Below, in pieces: positions 29,627 through 39,284 of a stretch of 64,000 nt of DNA (within the stretch, counting starts at the first letter, position 1; every line of letters begins with the position of its first letter). The translations under genes and the position numbers were made by a program. The notes below the pieces were generated by a model. That model was not told where the DNA came from, did not search any database, and saw nothing but the letters and a program-made list of their open reading frames with translations. Source of the DNA: Dehalococcoidia bacterium (GTDB lineage Bacteria; Chloroflexota; Dehalococcoidia; Lucifugimonadales; GCA-002694895); the NCBI GenBank assembly GCA_029936815.1, contig JAPYRX010000007.1, positions 3,129-67,128 on the forward strand. The letters run 5' to 3'.

Positions 29627-30355
29627 ATGACCACAAAAAAACAATTAAGAAAATGGGAAAGTATAAAATGTCCTGTTCATAGAAAATTGTCCTCTAATAC
29701 AGAAAATTATTTGTATGCAATGTTTTTACTAGATGAAAAACATGAAAAAATCACTGCCAGTACTCTTCTTGAATATATAAAACTCCTACCATCTTCTGAA
29801 AATTTGGGTACGAGCTTACCAACTGTTACAGGAATGTTGAAGCGAATGATAAGAGATCATCTTATTACTAAAAACAAAAATAATGAAATATTTCTAACAG
29901 AATACGGTAAAATTTCTGCTAAAGAACAAACGAAAAGATTTCGACTCGCTGGGAAATTCATACATGAAACTTTGAAAATAGAATTAAAAGATGTCTTTCA
30001 GGAAGCCCATAGATTAGAACATGCAATGTCTCAAGAAGTAGAAAATGCTATAGATAAATTACTTGAATACCCTGTAAAAGATCCATTTGGTCAGGATATT
30101 CCAGGATCACAAAAATTTAAGACAGAAAAAATAATACCACTTTCAGAAACATCCATAAATAAAACATATATAATATCTAAAATACCTCCAGAAAATTCAG
30201 AATTTGTTGATTTTTTACATAAAAATAATATAATTCCTGGCTCAAAAATAACCATAGAAGAAATATCTGATACGAGGGGAATTATTAATATTAAAGTAAA
30301 TAAAAAAACTTTAGATTTAGCACTCAATGTTGCTAAAACAATATGGGTCAAATGA
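29627..30355 (+). CDS. DtxR/MntR-family metal-dependent transcriptional regulator with FeoA/SH3-like C-terminal domain
   Basis: wHTH (LPTVTGMLKRM), metal/dimerisation region (EAHRLEHAMS), DPFGQDIP, and a C-terminal FeoA-like domain. Confidence 0.75.
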   Translation: MTTKKQLRKWESIKCPVHRKLSSNTENYLYAMFLLDEKHEKITASTLLEYIKLLPSSENLGTSLPTVTGMLKRMIRDHLITKNKNNEIFLTEYGKISAKEQTKRFRLAGKFIHETLKIELKDVFQEAHRLEHAMSQEVENAIDKLLEYPVKDPFGQDIPGSQKFKTEKIIPLSETSINKTYIISKIPPENSEFVDFLHKNNIIPGSKITIEEISDTRGIINIKVNKKTLDLALNVAKTIWVK

Positions 30356-30369
30356 TTTGCTAAAATCAG

Positions 30370-31519
30370 CTACTCAAACATTTCCCAACTAAATTTTCTC
30401 TTCTTGCCATTGAGTAAAACCCCTAAATATGTAGATCTAACTAAGTATTTATAACTTATATATGAAATTAATGTGGTTAATAAAATTGATAGCATTAATT
30501 TTAATTCAATTGAAAAATTAAATTTGAACATAAAAAAAGTAATAAAAGTAACTATCGAAAAATGAATTAGGTATATCCAATATGCACTATCTGCAAAGAT
30601 TCTGAATATTTTAGTAAAACTAATTAATTTGCATTCAAATAGACCTATAAAAAATAAGGAAAAAAACACAGAACAAAAATTATATTAAAATATATGGAAT
30701 CCAATAAACAGGGTGACTTTCAAAATCAAGTTTAATAATTTCTAAATTAATTAAAGTGTATAGTACAAAGAAAAAAATACTTGTAAGAGAATAATATTTC
30801 CAAGTCCTGACTATATTTTGTAGATTACGATTATTAAATATCTGATAGCCAAACATAAAATACATTCCTGAAAGAACAGGGTCAATATTAAACCAGGTCC
30901 TGTTTCTCCTAAACTGAAAATTGAAATAACAAAAATGAAAGGAATAGGGATTTTAGAATAAAATACAAATTTCAAGAAATAATGATTTATTTTAGAAAGT
31001 AGATTTATTAATTTATTAAGTTTAAAAAATATTAATAATTTACTAATAATTAAAAAATACAATTTTAGGATAGCTGAAAAAACAAGAAATATTAGTAAAT
31101 GCCAAAGAAACCATAAGTGATAAGGTATCCTTCAAAAGAATAAAAGAATTCTAATTTTTGAGTATATCCAAATTTCACGATCCAAGGAACAGTTGTCATC
31201 ATTAGCAGGCTAAAAATAATCAAAGGTAATAATATTCTTAAAATTCTATTTTCCCACCAATAAGTCAAACCGTTACGCGATATTAATAAATGAGAAAAAA
31301 ACCCAGATAAAATGAAAAAACAGGTATTCTCCATAATTGAATAAATTGAACTATTATAGATGTAATTTCTGAATCTGATTTGTCAGAAGGTCAATCCGGA
31401 ATATCCATGTTAACATAAGGTAATGCTGCATGCAGAACTATACCTAGTAGCATAGCAATTGCTCTCAATGCATCTAATCCATAAAATCTTTTATCGTTGT
31501 TAGCCCCAAGTTTGTTTAT
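30370..31519 (-). pseudogene. Multiply disrupted acyltransferase family 3 membrane protein gene
   Basis: Five pieces in different frames (end coordinates mod 3 = 1, 2, 0, 1, 0). In-frame TGA at 31391..31393. A one-T deficit in a T6 run breaks LWRIPVFFILSGFF. No canonical start codon before the conserved N-terminus (RFYGLDALRAIAMLLG). The C-terminal piece has SAYWIYLIH. Confidence 0.6.
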
Positions 31520-31594
31520 TTAGCAATCACATGGGTCGCAAGCGCAATTAACACATTTGCAGTTAGGGTTATTACAAGGTTTGTTATCAACCAT
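31520..31594 (-). CDS. Cys-rich 24-aa micro-ORF (candidate metal-binding peptide)
   Basis: My own translation gives MVDNKPCNNPNCKCVNCACDPCDC, with 7 Cys in 24 residues. The ATG lies 2 nt after the actE TGA, and AAGGA sits 6 nt upstream of the ATG. Locally G+C-enriched. Confidence 0.4.
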   Translation of the reverse strand: MVDNKPCNNPNCKCVNCACDPCDC

Positions 31595-31596
31595 TG

Positions 31597-32274
31597 TCAT
31601 TCCTTTTGAACAGAACGTAAATATGAGACTAGTGCCCATCTTTCTTGTTCTGTTAATATCGAATCGTAAGGAAGCATCCCTGATTTAATTTCTAAACCTT
31701 GTTCGTATTGAGCAAGACCAGTTCTAGATCCTTTAGATATAAATGCAAAAAGCTCTCCATCCGAAGAGTTCGAAGTTTTTTCTGAAAGTAAATTGGCAGG
31801 ATACGCGCCTTTATTAATTACTTTACCTTCAACAGTTTTTATATTCACATAGTCTCGATATGCTCCATTCCCATCTAAATTAGAGCCATGACAAAATATA
31901 CAATTTTCGGCGTATAATTTATTACCAAGAGTTAATTGATTATCAACATCATAATTAACAGGTATTTGTAAAGCTTTATATTCCATTGTATTTCTAGTAA
32001 GCTCTTTACCGTTCATAGGAACAGCTTCAGAATGAGGCATTATTCGAGGAATTTCTTGGCTTTTATAGGATGGTTGGTAATGCATTTCAGTAAAAATCAA
32101 AATAGCATGGCTACCTGATCCGGGGATTGCAGGCAAATGAATTGTAGCTGTCTCACCTAAAATTTTAACTTCACCAGTTTTTATATTTGCTGTACATGAA
32201 ACTAACACTAATACTATAGCAAATGATAAAAATAAACTGATTTGTTTTATTAATATTTTGTTCAACATCATCAC
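31597..32274 (-). CDS. actE: Alternative complex III monohaem cytochrome c lipoprotein subunit ActE
   Basis: Lipobox LVSC and a single CIFCH haem motif. Last gene of the ACIII cluster. Confidence 0.75.
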   Translation of the reverse strand: MMMLNKILIKQISLFLSFAIVLVLVSCTANIKTGEVKILGETATIHLPAIPGSGSHAILIFTEMHYQPSYKSQEIPRIMPHSEAVPMNGKELTRNTMEYKALQIPVNYDVDNQLTLGNKLYAENCIFCHGSNLDGNGAYRDYVNIKTVEGKVINKGAYPANLLSEKTSNSSDGELFAFISKGSRTGLAQYEQGLEIKSGMLPYDSILTEQERWALVSYLRSVQKE

Positions 32275-32279
32275 TCTTT

Positions 32280-32843
32280 TTAACCCCTTTTAGTTGACTT
32301 TGCTCCAGATTTTTTAAGTATTCGTTCTTCTTCCCAACCCCTCTTGGTTGACTCTGCTCCAGATTTTTTAAGTATTTCTTCTGCTTTTGATATTCTGTCA
32401 ATGGGCACTGTAACAACAACTCCAATATATCCTTCTGTCATAATTCGTTCGTCATAAGCTCCCATAAAAATCTTTGGTAATCTAGATTCGAACAAAGCTC
32501 CAAATACTGTCACAATAACAGAAAATAAAAGCGTCATTTCATAAAATATAACTAACATAGGAGGAATTGATAAAACAGGTTTCCCTCCAGTGACCAGTGG
32601 GTAAGCTAATTGCGTTCCAACTGTAATTATCAAAGCTACAGTAAATCCTATAACTGCGCCAAAGATCGGAAATCTATGTAATCGAAGTTTTGGATGAGCT
32701 TCACCAAATGTTCCATGAGGATATGGTGTTCCAGTCATAACTTCAAACTCATTGTCTTGATACTTCGCTTTTCTCAAAGAAGACAAGGCATCTCCTGCTT
32801 CATTTTCGTCTATAAATAATCCTAAAACACTTTTATTAGCCAT
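32280..32843 (-). CDS. actD: Alternative complex III subunit ActD (DUF3341-like)
   Basis: 187 aa. N-terminal soluble domain (VLGLFIDENEAGDALSSLRKA) followed by TM helices. Positioned between an NrfD-like gene and actE. Confidence 0.7.
   Translation of the reverse strand: MANKSVLGLFIDENEAGDALSSLRKAKYQDNEFEVMTGTPYPHGTFGEAHPKLRLHRFPIFGAVIGFTVALIITVGTQLAYPLVTGGKPVLSIPPMLVIFYEMTLLFSVIVTVFGALFESRLPKIFMGAYDERIMTEGYIGVVVTVPIDRISKAEEILKKSGAESTKRGWEEERILKKSGAKSTKRG
32283..32376 (-). repeat. 54-bp-period tandem duplication at the 3' end of actD
   Basis: 32283..32322 and 32337..32376 are near-identical 40-mers. They encode ILKKSGA(E/K)STKRG twice. Confidence 0.8.
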
Positions 32844-32846
32844 TGT

Positions 32847-34241
32847 TTACTCCCTTACAACTGCTGAGATATTCTTTTTTCCAATTTTTATTACATGCCT
32901 AAATCTCATACCTTCTTTTATATCAAAAGGAGGTATCAAAGGAAAGATTCTAGCAAAAACAATAATTCCACATATAACAAACGCAAATGTAAATGCTACT
33001 AATCCAATTTCAACTAAACTAGGGGCATATGAACCCCAATTAAAGCTCAATTCAGTTCTTCTAGATAATCCCGGTACAATAATTAAAAATCTCTCTAACC
33101 ACATACCAATGTTAACTAGTATAGTTGTAAAGAACATCCACATTGGATTCCTTCTTACACTTTTAAATAGCCATGCACTTACTGGAATAAAAAATCCGGT
33201 AAGTAAAAATACAATAAACAAATAACTCCACGGAGGTTGAGACACTTGCATATTTCTTAATGCAATTTCTGGATCTTCTAATGGATATAACGCATATATC
33301 CATTCTAAAAATAAGGCGAAAAACCAAATTGTCGCTACAACAACCAATAATCTTCCTATAGCATCGAAATGATCAGGTTTGATATATTTGTCTAATTTAT
33401 ATAACCATAGTAATCCTGCCATCAAAGTCACAACTCCCGATACTCCAGAATGAATTGCCCCAATTATAAAATATGGAGCAAATATAGTTGAATGCCAACC
33501 TTCAACAGCAATTGAAACGGCAAAGTCCCATGAAACGATACTATGAACAGAAACAAATATAGGCAAAACTAATGCAGACAACAATATTGGAGCAGTAGCT
33601 TGAACTTTCCATTGCCTTGGGGTGCCTCTAAATCCTAAAGCAAGTATGCTATAAACAATTTTAGCAGGGCCAGATTTTACTTTATCTCTTACTAAAGCAA
33701 TGTCAGGAATTAGACATGTATATACAAATAGAATTGTACTCAATAAATAGGTTCCCACTGCAACAGGATCCCATACGAATGGTGATCGTACATTAGGCCA
33801 AATTCCTCTAGCAAAATCAAAGCCAATAAATATAGGAGGAAGAGGTGTTATCCAATATATTCTCCATGGTCTACCTACGTGAAACAAAATATTACTTAAT
33901 GCTGCTATAAGTGAGAACAATGTTAAAACTTCAGCTGCTCTAGTAATAGGTCGTTTCCATTCTGCTTGAGTTAATCGTAATATTGCTGAGACCATAATTC
34001 CAGCATGGCTTATTCCTATCCAAAATACGAAATTAGTAATATAAGCTCCCCAGTACACTGGTCGTTGCACTCCTGTCACACCAAGCCCACTATATAATTC
34101 ATATATATAACCAGATATGCCTACAAGCATTATAAATCCTAATGATCCAACGAAAGACCAAAACCATCTAGCAGAACGTATTACAGGCGCTGTTAAGTCC
34201 TCTGTTATTTCACTATCTGATAACTGTTGATGCTCTTGCAT
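32847..34241 (-). CDS. actC: Alternative complex III NrfD-like membrane subunit (ActC by position)
   Basis: 464 aa polytopic NrfD/PsrC-like protein directly upstream of actD. Confidence 0.75.
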   Translation of the reverse strand: MQEHQQLSDSEITEDLTAPVIRSARWFWSFVGSLGFIMLVGISGYIYELYSGLGVTGVQRPVYWGAYITNFVFWIGISHAGIMVSAILRLTQAEWKRPITRAAEVLTLFSLIAALSNILFHVGRPWRIYWITPLPPIFIGFDFARGIWPNVRSPFVWDPVAVGTYLLSTILFVYTCLIPDIALVRDKVKSGPAKIVYSILALGFRGTPRQWKVQATAPILLSALVLPIFVSVHSIVSWDFAVSIAVEGWHSTIFAPYFIIGAIHSGVSGVVTLMAGLLWLYKLDKYIKPDHFDAIGRLLVVVATIWFFALFLEWIYALYPLEDPEIALRNMQVSQPPWSYLFIVFLLTGFFIPVSAWLFKSVRRNPMWMFFTTILVNIGMWLERFLIIVPGLSRRTELSFNWGSYAPSLVEIGLVAFTFAFVICGIIVFARIFPLIPPFDIKEGMRFRHVIKIGKKNISAVVRE

Positions 34242-34256
34242 TTATATAAACTCCAT

Positions 34257-35666
34257 CTAATAAGGTTTCCCTTCTACAAGTACTTCTGTTTTATAATATT
34301 TTTCATGACTTCCATATAATAAATATTCTCTGTTTTCCCATAAGCTTATAACAGGAACATATTTTGATATTATTAAAATAAAAAATAATGGCATAGAAAC
34401 AGCTCCAAAAATCACCATCAAATCAACCATGTTTGGGATAGCTATATCAGGTAAAGAAGCAAATCGGTGAGTCGCATCATCTATTGTTCGATCTAAAGAA
34501 TAAGCAGATCCATAATGCCTGAATCTATCTAAAAAGTTTCCGATTAAAACACTTAAGGCTATTATCGGAGGGCCGTAATAAGATTTTCTTATGCTATCTA
34601 AAGTTAGTGCAAAAAATGGAATAATACACACAAAGAAAAAAGTAAATAAAAATATTGGTAAATATTTTCCAAACATTAATAATTGCAGTACATCTCTTTC
34701 GTTGGGTTTTTTCCCATACCAAAGAACCATTAAGCTAGAAATGAAAAACCAAAACCATAATAAAGAAATCCCGAAAAGTAATTTTCCCAATCCCCATAAT
34801 TGATCAAGCCCAATAAAATTTTGATATCCTCCCCATTTCCACATAATAAATACGGCAATAGTTAATATTGCTACACCACCTTGTATTGCATTGTGTGAAA
34901 GCGTCACTGGATACAGAGAGTCAACCCATCCAGGTATCAATGCCATTAAGAAATCTGATGCAAAAAAATAATTTACAGTTAATAGAAGCATAAAGTAAAA
35001 AATACCTAAAACACTCACCCTATCTCTTAGTGATCCCCATTGATGAGTAGATCCAACCCAACCATAGGCCAAGAAAGAATATATTTTACTTTTACCCTTG
35101 GATTTATCTCTTAATATTGCAAAATCAGGTCTGGCATTTAGCCATAATAAAGTTAAAGCAGTTAATACAAACCCAAGCAATGCTAAAGTTGACCATATGT
35201 GCGGAGAATAGGCAGGTACTTTACCTGGATCAAAAAACCATAATGTTTTTCTACCATCTTCCAAGCTAGGGAGTACCCAAAGTATTGGCGTGAAAAATAT
35301 TAATCCAGCTATACCAGATATACAAAATATTTCTGACATTCGAGATATGGGCCTTCTCCAATTACCTCTTGCTACTTTTGTAGCCATAGATACCATTGGG
35401 GCTCCCATAAAGGTTGTAAATATAAACATGCAAGCTGTTACATAATATGACCAGGCACTCATGTCATCAAAGCCATTCATAATTCTTAGAATTATTCCTA
35501 TGATTCCAAAAACAGATAAAAATGCAGTAATATAAAGAAATGAATTGAACGTATTACCTCGTTTCCTATTGTGAATATTGATTAATTCTTTATTAACAGG
35601 AACTTTTCCCAAAGATCTTTCAATGACTCTTTCTGTAAATATTAAATTGTTTTTTATTTTCTTCAT
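34257..35666 (-). CDS. actF: Second NrfD-like membrane subunit (ActF-like), placed between actB2 and actC
   Basis: 469 aa polytopic protein, paralogous in architecture to 32847..34241. Confidence 0.65.
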   Translation of the reverse strand: MKKIKNNLIFTERVIERSLGKVPVNKELINIHNRKRGNTFNSFLYITAFLSVFGIIGIILRIMNGFDDMSAWSYYVTACMFIFTTFMGAPMVSMATKVARGNWRRPISRMSEIFCISGIAGLIFFTPILWVLPSLEDGRKTLWFFDPGKVPAYSPHIWSTLALLGFVLTALTLLWLNARPDFAILRDKSKGKSKIYSFLAYGWVGSTHQWGSLRDRVSVLGIFYFMLLLTVNYFFASDFLMALIPGWVDSLYPVTLSHNAIQGGVAILTIAVFIMWKWGGYQNFIGLDQLWGLGKLLFGISLLWFWFFISSLMVLWYGKKPNERDVLQLLMFGKYLPIFLFTFFFVCIIPFFALTLDSIRKSYYGPPIIALSVLIGNFLDRFRHYGSAYSLDRTIDDATHRFASLPDIAIPNMVDLMVIFGAVSMPLFFILIISKYVPVISLWENREYLLYGSHEKYYKTEVLVEGKPY

Positions 35667-35672
35667 TTTTCT

Positions 35673-36407
35673 TTAATGTGAATGTGATTTTTTTGAATTA
35701 TCAACTTTTTTTAAGTAAAGAACGTTTGGAGAAGTACCATAATGTTCCATCAAATGGTATCCTCTTCCGTCTTTCTTTTCTTCTTTTGCCTTAATCCTCG
35801 AAATCTTACTTTCAGGATTATTCATATCACCAAATATTAAAGCTTCTGTATTACAAGAATTTACGCATGCAGGATTAATTTCTCTTGCTCCATCTTCGAT
35901 TTCAAAACCATTTACTTTAGCATCTCGTTTTGTTCTTCTAATCTTCTGAACACAAAAGGTACATTTTTCCATAATACCTCTAGATCTGACGGTTACATCG
36001 GGGTTTAATTGATTCTTTAAAGAATCAGGCCATTCAGCTTCCCAAAAATTAAAAAATCTAACTTGGTAAGGGCAGTTGTTCGCACAAAATCTTGTACCAA
36101 TACATCTATTGTATACTTGAACATTCAAACCTTCATTATTGTGATATGAAGCATATACTGGACATACTGGTTCGCAAGGAGCTTCATCACAGTGTTGACA
36201 CATTATAGGAATAAATTTTGCTTTAACGTCAGGGAAAGATCCTTCCCAATATCGCTCAACTCTAATCCATTGAATAACTCTATTTTCATCATAGTCTGAT
36301 TTTTTTTGTAGAGGAATATTATTCTCAGATTGACAAGCAACAACACAAGCTTGACACCCATTACATTTGTCTAAATCTACTACCATTCCCCATTTTGATT
36401 GTTTCAT
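35673..36407 (-). CDS. actB: Alternative complex III iron-sulfur subunit (ActB2, 4Fe-4S ferredoxin-type)
   Basis: Several Cys clusters (CNGCQACVVAC, CQHCDEAPCEPVCP, CIGTRFCANNCP, CTFC). Confidence 0.85.
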   Translation of the reverse strand: MKQSKWGMVVDLDKCNGCQACVVACQSENNIPLQKKSDYDENRVIQWIRVERYWEGSFPDVKAKFIPIMCQHCDEAPCEPVCPVYASYHNNEGLNVQVYNRCIGTRFCANNCPYQVRFFNFWEAEWPDSLKNQLNPDVTVRSRGIMEKCTFCVQKIRRTKRDAKVNGFEIEDGAREINPACVNSCNTEALIFGDMNNPESKISRIKAKEEKKDGRGYHLMEHYGTSPNVLYLKKVDNSKKSHSH

Positions 36408-36422
36408 TTTAATTATCTCCTA

Positions 36423-38675
36423 TTAATGATGATCGCTATCATCTGAATCTGATGTTGTGATTTTGATTACATGGTTATGAGGATCTCTTTTCAATTCCTC
36501 GAATCTTCCTTCGAATTTAGGGATAGCGATATTATTACCAGTGTTTCGTATTTTTACTTTTGTTGCGGCCCACGCATGTGTACCAATATTATCATCTAAT
36601 TGCACATCTAAAATAGAATATACATTAGATCCCACATTTTTAGTATATGATCCTGATTCTTGACCGCCTCCTACAGGGACAGTTACAACTTCTGGAGAAA
36701 CAGAAGGATTGGGATATGCTGCTGCTTTAATGGATTCATTATTTGAATTACTTATTTCAATGATGTCCCCCTCTTTTATTTTCATCTTTTTTGCCAAATC
36801 ATAATTGATTTCAACCCAAGTTTCCCACGCTATCGTAGTTAAAGGGTCAGTCAATCCTTGTAACCATGGCGACTTCGCAAAGCTGCCATCTCCTACTTTA
36901 GTACGGAATGGAACTAAATGGAAAGAATCCTTACCAGATACATTACTGAATTTTAGAGTTTGAACTTTAGGCCAATTAGTGATATTCGATTGAACATTGT
37001 TATTAACTTTAGAATTAATATCCCACCATCCTCCTCTTGAAAGCACTCCATTCCAAAAAGATTTGAAATCAGCAGCTGTAATTGATCCTCTATTTAATTT
37101 CCATAACACTTGAGCATCTTCCATTAAAATATCTTTAATCTTTTTACCAGAGTATTTATTTTTTACTCCTATTTCATCTGATAGTTCGATAATAATATCA
37201 CTCAAATCTTTTGTACCAGAATACTTACCTTTATGACTAAATTGGCTTTTAACTACTGGTTGTTGGAATCCAACAACTTGATATCCTGGACCAATAGATG
37301 GAACATCATTCCCCCATGATTCAAATTGAGTATTCAAAGGTAATATAATATCAGCATATTTAGATGTGTCATCTACAAATGAGTTAAAAGAAACAATTAA
37401 TTCTAATTTACTTAATGCTGATTTAAAGTCCAAACTTGTGGGTAAGTAATAGTTAAGATCAATATCATTAATAAATAGAGAATTAACAGATCCAGATTTA
37501 ATATTACTCACTAAATCTAATGTTTTTTTATAATTACCTTCAAATCTAGATCCTCTCAAGTCATCTAATGGAGAGTCTGGGTTAATAATTATTCCACCTT
37601 CTTTATTAATATTCCCCATCAATACATTAAGAGCATATATAGCTTCTACGCTAGATGTTCCATTAGAATTTGCAGATGCTTCATCACCTCCGATAATTAA
37701 TGGGTGTTTTGCTTCCGATAATTTTTGTGCCAAATATTCGATTTTCTCTTCGCTCATTCCAGTAATAGTAGATACATTTTTAGGGGAGTATTGTTTCAAA
37801 TCTTGTATGTTTAATTTCTTAGCAAAATCAGTTTTAATCATATTTTTTGAAATAAGAACATATGCGATTGAGGAAGCAATCAAGCCTTGTGAACCTGGTT
37901 TGCAATATATCCACTCATCAGCATTTGTTGCCGTCAAAGACAATCTTGATTCAATTTGATACATTGTACCTCTTGGAGCATCTCTAAATTGCCCATAAAG
38001 TCTCCCAAACATAGCTTCTGAATGATTAGAATTAAACATATCCATTCCAAAATTTAGCAATAAATCTGAATGAGCTATGTCAAATTTTGGCATATTAGAA
38101 CTGCCTGTGATTTTTTGAAGTGCTGACAAAACATTAGAATCATCAAATGCAGTAAAAATTATCTCCTTATTTCCCATTTCACTAGCAAAAGCGCTTAATA
38201 CAGATCCGGTTCTACCTCTTAGTGGTTTGGAAACAATACTAGCTTTAGAGTTACCCAATCTGTCCAACTGAGAAGCTATTCTTTTATACGCGTCGGTCCA
38301 GCTTATTTCTTCCCATTTTTCAGCACCTCTGTTAGTGCCTTCTTTCCTAACTAACGGAGCCTGAATTCTGTCTGGGTGATAAAGCATCTGTAATTCTGCC
38401 TCACTAGAAATGCTATGAGACCCAGTATTAACAGGATAATCAGTATTGCCTTCAACTTTTTTAGCACGGCCTTCCATAATTCTAATAGCCAAGCCTTCTC
38501 CATTAGAACCCAAAGTTGCATACCAGTTATCTATACCTGTGACTTGATCTTCAGGAAGTTTATTTGGAGATTGAAAATACAATTCTTCTTCTGGCACTCC
38601 ACAAGCACTAAATATTACAGCGCCTGCTCCACCGCCTCCAATTAATTTTAAAAATTCTCTTCTAGTTATATTCAT
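36423..38675 (-). CDS. actB: Alternative complex III molybdopterin-oxidoreductase-like subunit (ActB1), Tat-exported
   Basis: Tat motif TRREFLK. Mo-bisPGD-fold-like 750-aa protein. The N-terminal FeS Cys motif is replaced (NWYATLGSNGEGLAIRIMEGRAKKVEGN), as expected for cofactor-less ActB1. Confidence 0.8.
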   Translation of the reverse strand: MNITRREFLKLIGGGGAGAVIFSACGVPEEELYFQSPNKLPEDQVTGIDNWYATLGSNGEGLAIRIMEGRAKKVEGNTDYPVNTGSHSISSEAELQMLYHPDRIQAPLVRKEGTNRGAEKWEEISWTDAYKRIASQLDRLGNSKASIVSKPLRGRTGSVLSAFASEMGNKEIIFTAFDDSNVLSALQKITGSSNMPKFDIAHSDLLLNFGMDMFNSNHSEAMFGRLYGQFRDAPRGTMYQIESRLSLTATNADEWIYCKPGSQGLIASSIAYVLISKNMIKTDFAKKLNIQDLKQYSPKNVSTITGMSEEKIEYLAQKLSEAKHPLIIGGDEASANSNGTSSVEAIYALNVLMGNINKEGGIIINPDSPLDDLRGSRFEGNYKKTLDLVSNIKSGSVNSLFINDIDLNYYLPTSLDFKSALSKLELIVSFNSFVDDTSKYADIILPLNTQFESWGNDVPSIGPGYQVVGFQQPVVKSQFSHKGKYSGTKDLSDIIIELSDEIGVKNKYSGKKIKDILMEDAQVLWKLNRGSITAADFKSFWNGVLSRGGWWDINSKVNNNVQSNITNWPKVQTLKFSNVSGKDSFHLVPFRTKVGDGSFAKSPWLQGLTDPLTTIAWETWVEINYDLAKKMKIKEGDIIEISNSNNESIKAAAYPNPSVSPEVVTVPVGGGQESGSYTKNVGSNVYSILDVQLDDNIGTHAWAATKVKIRNTGNNIAIPKFEGRFEELKRDPHNHVIKITTSDSDDSDHH

Positions 38676-38687
38676 AATTTATTAATC

Positions 38688-39284
38688 CTAATAATGACAA
38701 GTCGTACAGTCTGTAGATGCACCATTCGCTTTATGACAATCCACACACCATCCCATTTTCATAGGAGACACTTGTTTAACTTTGGTCATAGAAGCAACAT
38801 CGCCATGACAAGTTGAACAAACCTCACTTGCTTCGATGTTATTTTTTTCAGATAATTTCTTTATATGAGGTGGATGATAAAATTTCGCATGATCAGGTAG
38901 TCTATGCACTCTGACCCAATCAATAGGTTTTCCACCTTCGTAAGTATCTCTGATTTTTGCAATTTCACCTTTGTCATCACCAACAATTCTATGGCATGAC
39001 ATACAAAATTCTACGGGCGGTATAGCAGCCGCTGCTGCTCCTTCAGTACCAAATCTATGGCAATATGTGCATTTCATCCCTAGTTGCTTAACGTGCGGCG
39101 CATGTTTAAATGCTATTGGTTGATCAGGACCTTCGTCAAATCCAAATAAAGGTTGCGTCCACCAAGCAGATCCAACAAAAATTCCCACAACTATAATAAG
39201 TACTGTAGTGATAAATCCACCAATACCAGAAATTATTAAAAATTTCTTACTTATTTTTGGTACTCTATAATCACCTGGAATCAA
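38688..39284 (-). CDS. actA: Alternative complex III pentahaem cytochrome c subunit ActA
   Basis: N-terminal TM anchor and five CxxCH motifs (CTYCH, CMSCH, CSTCH, CVDCH, CTTCH). TTG start preceded by GAGGAAAG. Confidence 0.85.
   Translation of the reverse strand: MIPGDYRVPKISKKFLIISGIGGFITTVLIIVVGIFVGSAWWTQPLFGFDEGPDQPIAFKHAPHVKQLGMKCTYCHRFGTEGAAAAAIPPVEFCMSCHRIVGDDKGEIAKIRDTYEGGKPIDWVRVHRLPDHAKFYHPPHIKKLSEKNNIEASEVCSTCHGDVASMTKVKQVSPMKMGWCVDCHKANGASTDCTTCHY

Follow-up and report, generated by a model that had tools for sequence, protein, structure and literature searches.

Directly downstream of actE, at the 3' end of the alternative complex III (ACIII) operon of a low-GC marine SAR202/Dehalococcoidia bacterium, lies an open reading frame of 24 codons that comparison with relatives indicates is a genuine protein-coding gene under purifying selection. 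Its product belongs to a family of very short, cysteine-rich peptides that appears to have been undescribed until now, and the majority of its homologues are found in marine phage contigs. The reading favoured here, with a probability of roughly 0.6, is that the gene encodes a minimal metallothionein-like metal-thiolate peptide, which would be co-expressed with ACIII without being specific to it. The link to ACIII is positional and lineage-specific, and what is distinct in these results is the family itself, its prevalence in phages, and its coupling to a respiratory operon.

The micro-ORF was identified in a 64 kb stretch of DNA, referred to as the window, the relevant features of which are collected in Table 1. 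The minus strand across the junction reads ...CAAAAGGA ATG ACA ATG GTT GAT AAC AAA CCT TGT AAT AAC CCT AAC TGC, and continues to the 3' end of the micro-ORF as AAA TGT GTT AAT TGC GCT TGC GAC CCA TGT GAT TGC TAA. Hence the stop codon of actE (TGA, 31599-31597) is followed by two nucleotides, CA, and then by the ATG of the micro-ORF (31594-31592), which terminates at a TAA (31522-31520). An earlier note on this DNA had described this minus-strand frame, its peptide, the AAGGA motif 6 nt before the ATG and the 2-nt gap to the actE stop, all of which the sequence bears out exactly. A second in-frame ATG (31600-31598) overlaps the actE stop, as ATGA, and would generate a product of 26 aa; the alignment with relatives and the spacing of the Shine-Dalgarno sequence favour 31594, rather than 31600, as the homologous start. 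The peptide, MVDNKPCNNPNCKCVNCACDPCDC, contains seven cysteines in 24 residues (29%), arranged as three CxC and two CxxC motifs with the spacing C-x4-C-x-C-x2-C-x-C-x2-C-x-C, and lacks F, W, Y and H, as well as any hydrophobic segment for membrane association. A scan of the 64 kb window for the six-cysteine core pattern gave a single occurrence, compared with zero in 100 shuffles. The G+C richness also claimed for this segment is present as an enrichment (0.387, relative to 0.307 for the window), but it is a weak one, at +1.1 sd, with 16% of 75-nt windows being equally high.

Table 1. Coordinates of the micro-ORF and its neighbours within the window
Feature	Position	Strand	Basis
Micro-ORF, 24 codons and TAA, product MVDNKPCNNPNCKCVNCACDPCDC	31520..31594	minus	Sequence read and relatives' alleles
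Shine-Dalgarno-like AAGGA within the 3' end of actE	31601..31605	minus	6 nt 5' of ATG 31594
actE, monohaem cytochrome c of alternative complex III	31597..32274	minus	Pfam Cytochrom_C, E = 2.7e-12
Rest of ACIII operon: ActA, ActB1, ActB2 (split ActB), two NrfD-like subunits, ActD	32280..39284	minus	
Fragmented Acyl_transf_3 (PF01757) pseudogene	30370..31519	minus	Pfam matches on three fragments
DtxR/MntR-family Fe/Mn regulator, convergent to operon	29627..30355	plus	NCBIfam MntR/DtxR matches below cut-off

The ACIII operon, in which the gene for ActD (PF11821) is immediately 5' of actE, is likely to be transcribed together with the micro-ORF, which lies at its 3' end. On the other side, the remnant of an acyltransferase gene runs on in the frame of the micro-ORF after its TAA, as the earlier note had observed, and the frameshifts that fragment it are also present in two other assemblies, at 99.98-100% identity. 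No metal sensor adjoins the SAR202 copy, and nearby there is only the convergent DtxR/MntR-type gene, a conserved neighbour, the position of which is kept in relatives.

Evidence that the micro-ORF is a protein-coding gene came from actE loci taken from genomes and metagenomes, in each of which the DNA 3' of actE was read. Among SAR202 contigs whose ActE is 68-100% identical, eight distinct intact alleles immediately follow actE, each starting 1-5 nt past it with a GGAG or GGAGG 4-7 nt before the ATG. Their consensus is MSEKKCxNPNCKCVNCACxPCNC. All seven cysteines are invariant across the alleles, while every cysteine codon switches between TGT and TGC, and in the 18-codon core the variable sites at codon positions 1, 2 and 3 number 5, 3 and 17 respectively. 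Correspondingly, pN ranges from 0.04 to 0.16, with synonymous sites near saturation in most allele pairs, and pN/pS lies between 0.04 and 0.23 in all pairs except the two least-diverged. The conserved cysteine spacing that the earlier note had suggested looking for in relatives is thus present, and the variation, for which it had proposed the same check, is for the most part synonymous. The gene is nevertheless absent from annotation, having been left uncalled by the gene-calling pipelines in every SAR202 contig examined.

Elsewhere the gene has decayed. In one population, represented in three independent samples (L152-154), the start codon is ATA, two cysteine codons have become TAT, and the reading frame is disrupted; in L146, the ActE of which is 95% identical to that of the window, the micro-ORF has undergone Cys-to-Phe changes and a frameshift. 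Two contigs of metatranscriptome origin (X4 and X8) have a related allele in which the Shine-Dalgarno sequence is hit, the ATG is changed to GTG and the fourth cysteine to Phe. The gene has therefore decayed in at least two close lineages, that of L146 with the X4 and X8 strains and that of L152-154, and the act operon remains intact in both L146 and L152-154 despite this decay. In 25 more distant SAR202 loci (ActE 27-46% identity), the micro-ORF is absent after actE, with a different gene, or nothing comparable, found 3' of it. The co-conservation with the act genes that would characterise an ACIII subunit is thus not seen, given these 25 loci and the two decayed lineages.

The gene's ancestry also departs from that of the operon. 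Over the final 600 nt of actE, L148 and L167 are 98% identical, yet their identity falls to 76% over the 54-nt core of the micro-ORF, whereas the window and L148 share 73% identity in actE and 93% in the micro-ORF core. This discordance between the micro-ORF and actE trees places a recombination boundary at the junction of the two genes. The micro-ORF is a dispensable gene, which is accessory, recombining and repeatedly lost, and not a subunit of ACIII. The recombination boundary, where the ACIII operon ends, adjoins a variable region, in which the acyltransferase gene may be intact, eroded or deleted.

Four seawater metatranscriptomes yielded contigs, at 92-95% identity to the window, that span actD/actE, the actE stop and the micro-ORF region. 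They fit read-through of the operon into the micro-ORF region, with the contigs coming from strains with decayed copies and potentially containing DNA. The earlier note's suggestion of co-expression with ACIII is plausible, judging by the 1-5 nt gap and the Shine-Dalgarno sequence inside actE, and the micro-ORF would be co-translated with ActE. A functional tie to the complex is weak, as the gene is missing from the distant loci, has decayed twice, and has homologues mostly in phages and other contexts.

These homologues define a wider family with the core C-x-N-[PE]-x-C-K-C-x-N-C-x-C-D-P-C-x-C. A degenerate DNA pattern for C-K-C-x2-C-x-C-x2-C-x-C, scanned over metagenome contigs, recovered many small ORFs that have their own Shine-Dalgarno sequence and share this ordered core, with C-x-N-P-x often in front of it. 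A profile constructed from these ORFs and the SAR202 alleles (A1), headed by a 46-aa translation from the window, matched 193 proteins at E <= 10 among 5.8e9 sequences, and 86 clusters at E <= 1e-3 among 1.84e9 representatives. These matches are 29-69 aa long, are without a Pfam domain, and are either annotated as 'hypothetical protein' or unnamed; a typical member, MCNNEECKCENCTCDPCECTxxNPCGC..., has nine cysteines. The window peptide shares the features common to the family in alignments A1 and A2, namely the ordered 18-residue core with seven invariant cysteines, a length of 19-45 aa, and a Shine-Dalgarno sequence of its own.

As cysteine-rich sequences can resemble one another by composition, the relationship was quantified using an HMM of the SAR202 alleles alone. 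Family members scored 17-36 bits, relative to maxima of 3-17 for their shuffles, and none of the 2000 composition-matched sequences made for each member beat its real score; for instance, the bacterial P0090 and P0114 scored 36 and 26 bits, and the phage P0121 scored 24.5 bits, with maxima of 13-17 for their shuffles. Hence the members are related through an ordered motif, rather than through mere cysteine richness. Searches of Pfam, NCBIfam, PHROGs and the PDB with the sequences of the peptide and nine homologues returned no match except Metallothio_Euk, at E = 4.7 on one homologue only, and none of these ten sequences matched PF02069 (BmtA/SmtA) at E <= 10. A tblastn search of 50,697 deposited phage genomes with two peptides also found no match, a result that says little, as the low-complexity filter of BLAST may be its cause. 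No paper was found in the literature that contained the motif, or that described phage or SAR202 metallothioneins. For a phage member, AF2 predicts a structure without secondary-structure elements at moderate confidence (pLDDT 72), as might be expected of a metal-dependent fold, and Foldseek found no match to this model in the PDB.

The form of the motif containing D-P is present in 100 IMG/VR contigs, several of these loci also carrying genes for a terminase large subunit or portal. In an abundant phage group (P0121, 351 contigs), the peptide gene directly follows IscA-IscA-IscU. The contigs of this group, from uncultured marine phage (L168-L172, 3700-7300), encode IscA, IscA and IscU/NifU_N, then the nine-cysteine peptide, with ribosomal protein S21 further on, and also encode RNR and glutaredoxin; the Fe-S assembly cluster and the thiolate peptide may constitute one auxiliary module. 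In another group (P0161), the peptide is found among genes for radical SAM, QueF and GTP cyclohydrolase I proteins. More informative about function are three bacterial lineages with approximately 50% G+C (L277/L278; L135 with L091; and L279), which encode the peptide as a second cistron, the start of which overlaps the stop of an ArsR/SmtB (PF01022) gene. The paired regulators have a CELCACDIL thiolate metal site (ELCxCD) and a cysteine-rich C-terminal tail. These tails are themselves metallothionein-like, with the form C(H/Q)CG(P/A)(D/N)CSCxHC (L277 4678-5004; L279 4172-4507; L135 702-1028).

The metallothionein-like reading is based on the peptide's composition, on the ordered cysteine core, and on the operons in which bacterial members accompany thiolate-type sensors. 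The window peptide has the classical attributes of a metallothionein, being of low mass, with ~30% cysteine in CxC and CxxC motifs and no aromatic residues. Metallothioneins are a polyphyletic class recognised by composition, such that the assignment is made by analogy and from the context of homologues. An operon of an ArsR/SmtB gene and a cysteine-rich peptide is the classic layout of metal-inducible detoxification, and these two-gene operons lend independent support to the metallothionein-like reading, one of those that the earlier note had offered. Both metal binding and the identity of the metal are inferred here. The 24-residue cytoplasmic peptide would wrap its seven thiolates around a small cluster of thiophilic d10 ions, either Zn(II)/Cd(II) or Cu(I), and this cluster would buffer or sequester the metal. 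The SAR202 copy, as the final cistron in the ACIII operon, would do so without a sensor of its own, and would be translated from the Shine-Dalgarno sequence inside actE. Set against this reading are the lack of matches to known metallothionein families, the lack of an adjoining metal sensor in SAR202, the phage IscA-IscA-IscU context, which could mean Fe-S chemistry, and the decay of the gene in at least two close lineages.

The closest functional parallels are the cyanobacterial SmtB-SmtA and BxmR-BmtA systems, in which an ArsR/SmtB repressor controls a bacterial metallothionein. These resemble the bacterial members of the family (P0114, P0090, L135 and L091) in tying a cysteine-rich peptide to an ArsR/SmtB thiolate sensor, and in their presumed role in metal sequestration. 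However, the homologues are co-directional with their regulator, with overlapping stop and start codons, rather than divergent from it, and the SAR202 copy has no ArsR gene, being situated instead on a respiratory operon. Neither is there a relation in sequence, as SmtA scores 6.1 bits on the SAR202 HMM; the peptide is half the length of BmtA/SmtA or less, and lacks both the His ligands of their Cys9His2-type zinc-finger-like core and zinc-finger-like fold elements. Mycobacterial MymT, and other small Cu/Cd peptides, are similarly small, cysteine-rich, cytoplasmic and easily left unannotated. MymT-type peptides, of ~53 aa and Cu-induced, protect bacteria against thiophilic metals, but have no sequence similarity to the family, contain a different set of motifs, and are not known from phages.

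Eukaryotic metallothioneins offer parallels in size and cluster geometry. The family-8 Cu metallothionein of Neurospora crassa binds a Cu(I)6 cluster with 25-26 aa and seven cysteines, and therefore a peptide of such a size can form a stable metal-thiolate cluster. It has nearly the same length as the window peptide, the same number of cysteines, and likewise no aromatic residues. Yet its spacing is different (CxC-x5-CxC-x3-CxC-x2-C), it is Gly/Ser-rich where the window family is Asn/Asp/Lys/Pro-rich, and it scores -3.1 bits on the SAR202 HMM, with 505 of 2000 shuffles as good. The vertebrate metallothionein beta-domain, which forms M(II)3Cys9, has the run C-K-C-x-x-C-x-C-x-x-C in common with the family, and the nine-cysteine phage members match the cysteine count of this M3S9 cluster. 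The ordered similarity is weak, at 7.4 bits, a score reached by 2 of 2000 shuffles, and Pfam gives no significant match; the window peptide is a stand-alone product with seven, rather than nine, cysteines, and the resemblance is probably convergent.

Other explanations of the micro-ORF differ in how far they can accommodate its distribution. Were the peptide an accessory dedicated to ACIII, either as a small subunit or as an Fe-S, haem or Cu chaperone for the complex or a partner oxidase, then a need for matched stoichiometry or for assembly would explain how closely the gene is coupled to actE. The position of every intact allele, starting 1-5 nt after actE with its Shine-Dalgarno sequence within that gene, agrees with such a role, as do the richness of ACIII in Fe-S clusters and haem, and the homologue that directly follows IscA-IscA-IscU in one phage group. 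It is nonetheless improbable, as the 25 distant SAR202 loci have no such gene after actE, L146 and L152-154 retain ACIII having lost it, the phage and ArsR-operon homologues occur without ACIII, the micro-ORF phylogeny is discordant with that of actE, and the peptide offers no hydrophobic segment through which to associate with the membrane. Alternatively, the peptide might serve as a miniature ferredoxin or a rubredoxin-like carrier, binding or shuttling either iron or Fe-S clusters, instead of being a sink for Zn, Cu or Cd. This remains a minority possibility on account of the phage context, in which two IscA/HesB genes and an IscU/NifU_N gene adjoin the peptide gene recurrently in several contigs, and the SAR202 copy also neighbours both the Fe-S-rich ACIII and a DtxR-type Fe/Mn regulator. 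We regard it as unlikely: such a density of CxC and CxxC motifs is generally characteristic of d10 thiolate clusters, and not of known [4Fe-4S] or rubredoxin motifs, the bacterial homologues are under ArsR/SmtB sensors with ELCxCD sites, suited to ions of the As/Cd/Pb/Zn/Cu type rather than Fe, and the other phage groups place the gene in unrelated contexts.

Far less credible is the suggestion, raised by the earlier note, that the peptide is the precursor or core of a RiPP, with its cysteines cross-linked by a maturase encoded elsewhere. The peptide is suitably short and cysteine-rich, and a SCIFF-type radical SAM maturase (TIGR03974, 577 bits) is encoded within 0.5 kb of the homologue in L091, L277 and L278. 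However, this maturase gene runs convergently and is immediately preceded by a SCIFF substrate gene (PF13165) of its own; inspection of neighbouring genes and their Pfam matches found no radical SAM or other maturase, protease or exporter near the SAR202 or phage copies; and there is no leader and core architecture, the whole peptide being conserved. The remaining proposal is that the micro-ORF is a regulatory uORF or leader, exerting Cys-tRNA-sensitive control of the acyltransferase, or else the decayed 5' end of the acyltransferase gene, the latter being the scenario that the earlier note had regarded as refuting. In several relatives a distance of 12-110 nt separates the micro-ORF from the start of the acyltransferase downstream, and in the window the two share a frame. 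Yet L001, L147, L157-164 and L152-154 retain an intact acyltransferase with a separate ATG, which in relatives is either preceded by one to four stops or out of frame with the micro-ORF. Where the acyltransferase is deleted, as in L146 and L148-150, the micro-ORF survives intact in L148-150, as it does beside the pseudogene in the window. Hence the decayed 5' end was rejected as an explanation, on the basis of the relatives. With conservation also acting at the amino-acid level, and homologues occurring in entirely different contexts, both forms of this proposal are already contradicted, and the chance of either being correct is minimal.

The metallothionein-like reading can be extended to a broader one, which is speculative and which we hold to be somewhat improbable as a whole: that the family represents the unrecognised smallest prokaryotic metallothioneins, an auxiliary gene spread mainly by marine phages, in which it reroutes the Zn, Cu or Fe of the host during infection, and that the SAR202 copy was captured from this pool and hard-wired to ACIII. 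If so, then SAR202, an abundant deep-ocean group without cultures, would link metal buffering to respiration. Even on the narrower reading, SAR202 gains a putative metal-handling element co-expressed with its respiratory chain. To our knowledge, prokaryotic metallothioneins have been thought rare, consisting essentially of BmtA/SmtA, MymT and a few others, whereas this result points to a widespread peptide family that gene finders skip. If these peptides bind metal, then trace-metal handling is an auxiliary function of phages that has yet to be listed, in an ocean setting in which Zn, Cd, Cu and Fe either limit growth or poison it. A direct handle on the identity of the metal is provided by the bacterial copies linked to ArsR.

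Several further observations were made at these loci. The seven-cysteine peptides closest in form to the SAR202 type, such as MKKTCDNPNCKCENCDCKNCDC, are encoded on marine contigs with 32-33% GC (L079, L123 and L139), between the gene for a predicted outer-membrane beta-barrel and that for an MshEN-type c-di-GMP-binding domain. Two contigs with 33% GC (L058 6154-6856 and L083 4682-5377) encode larger cysteine-rich peptides, of 37-44 aa with 14-15 cysteines, directly upstream of SigZ-like ECF sigma factors ending in CC...CxxC, each of which may be a pairing of a metal- or redox-sensing sigma factor with a thiolate peptide. Four IMG/VR contigs labelled as giant viruses (GVMAG; L183, L249, L251 and L252) encode proteins of 77-95 aa that open with CKCDPC repeats, followed by a conserved, cysteine-containing, helical-looking domain, and these may be a fused relative of the mini-peptides. 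In a SAR202 relative (L167 2244-2597), a 117-aa gene after a truncated acyltransferase matches RING-finger families of eukaryote type, zf-C3HC4 and zf-RING_2 among them, which is unusual in a bacterium. Finally, at the 3' end of ActD (window 32274-32329), a metatranscriptome contig of a ~95% relative skips exactly 54 nt, and ActD is 187 aa in the window, relative to 171-172 aa in all relatives, from which it follows that actD contains a 54-bp tandem duplication specific to the window's population.
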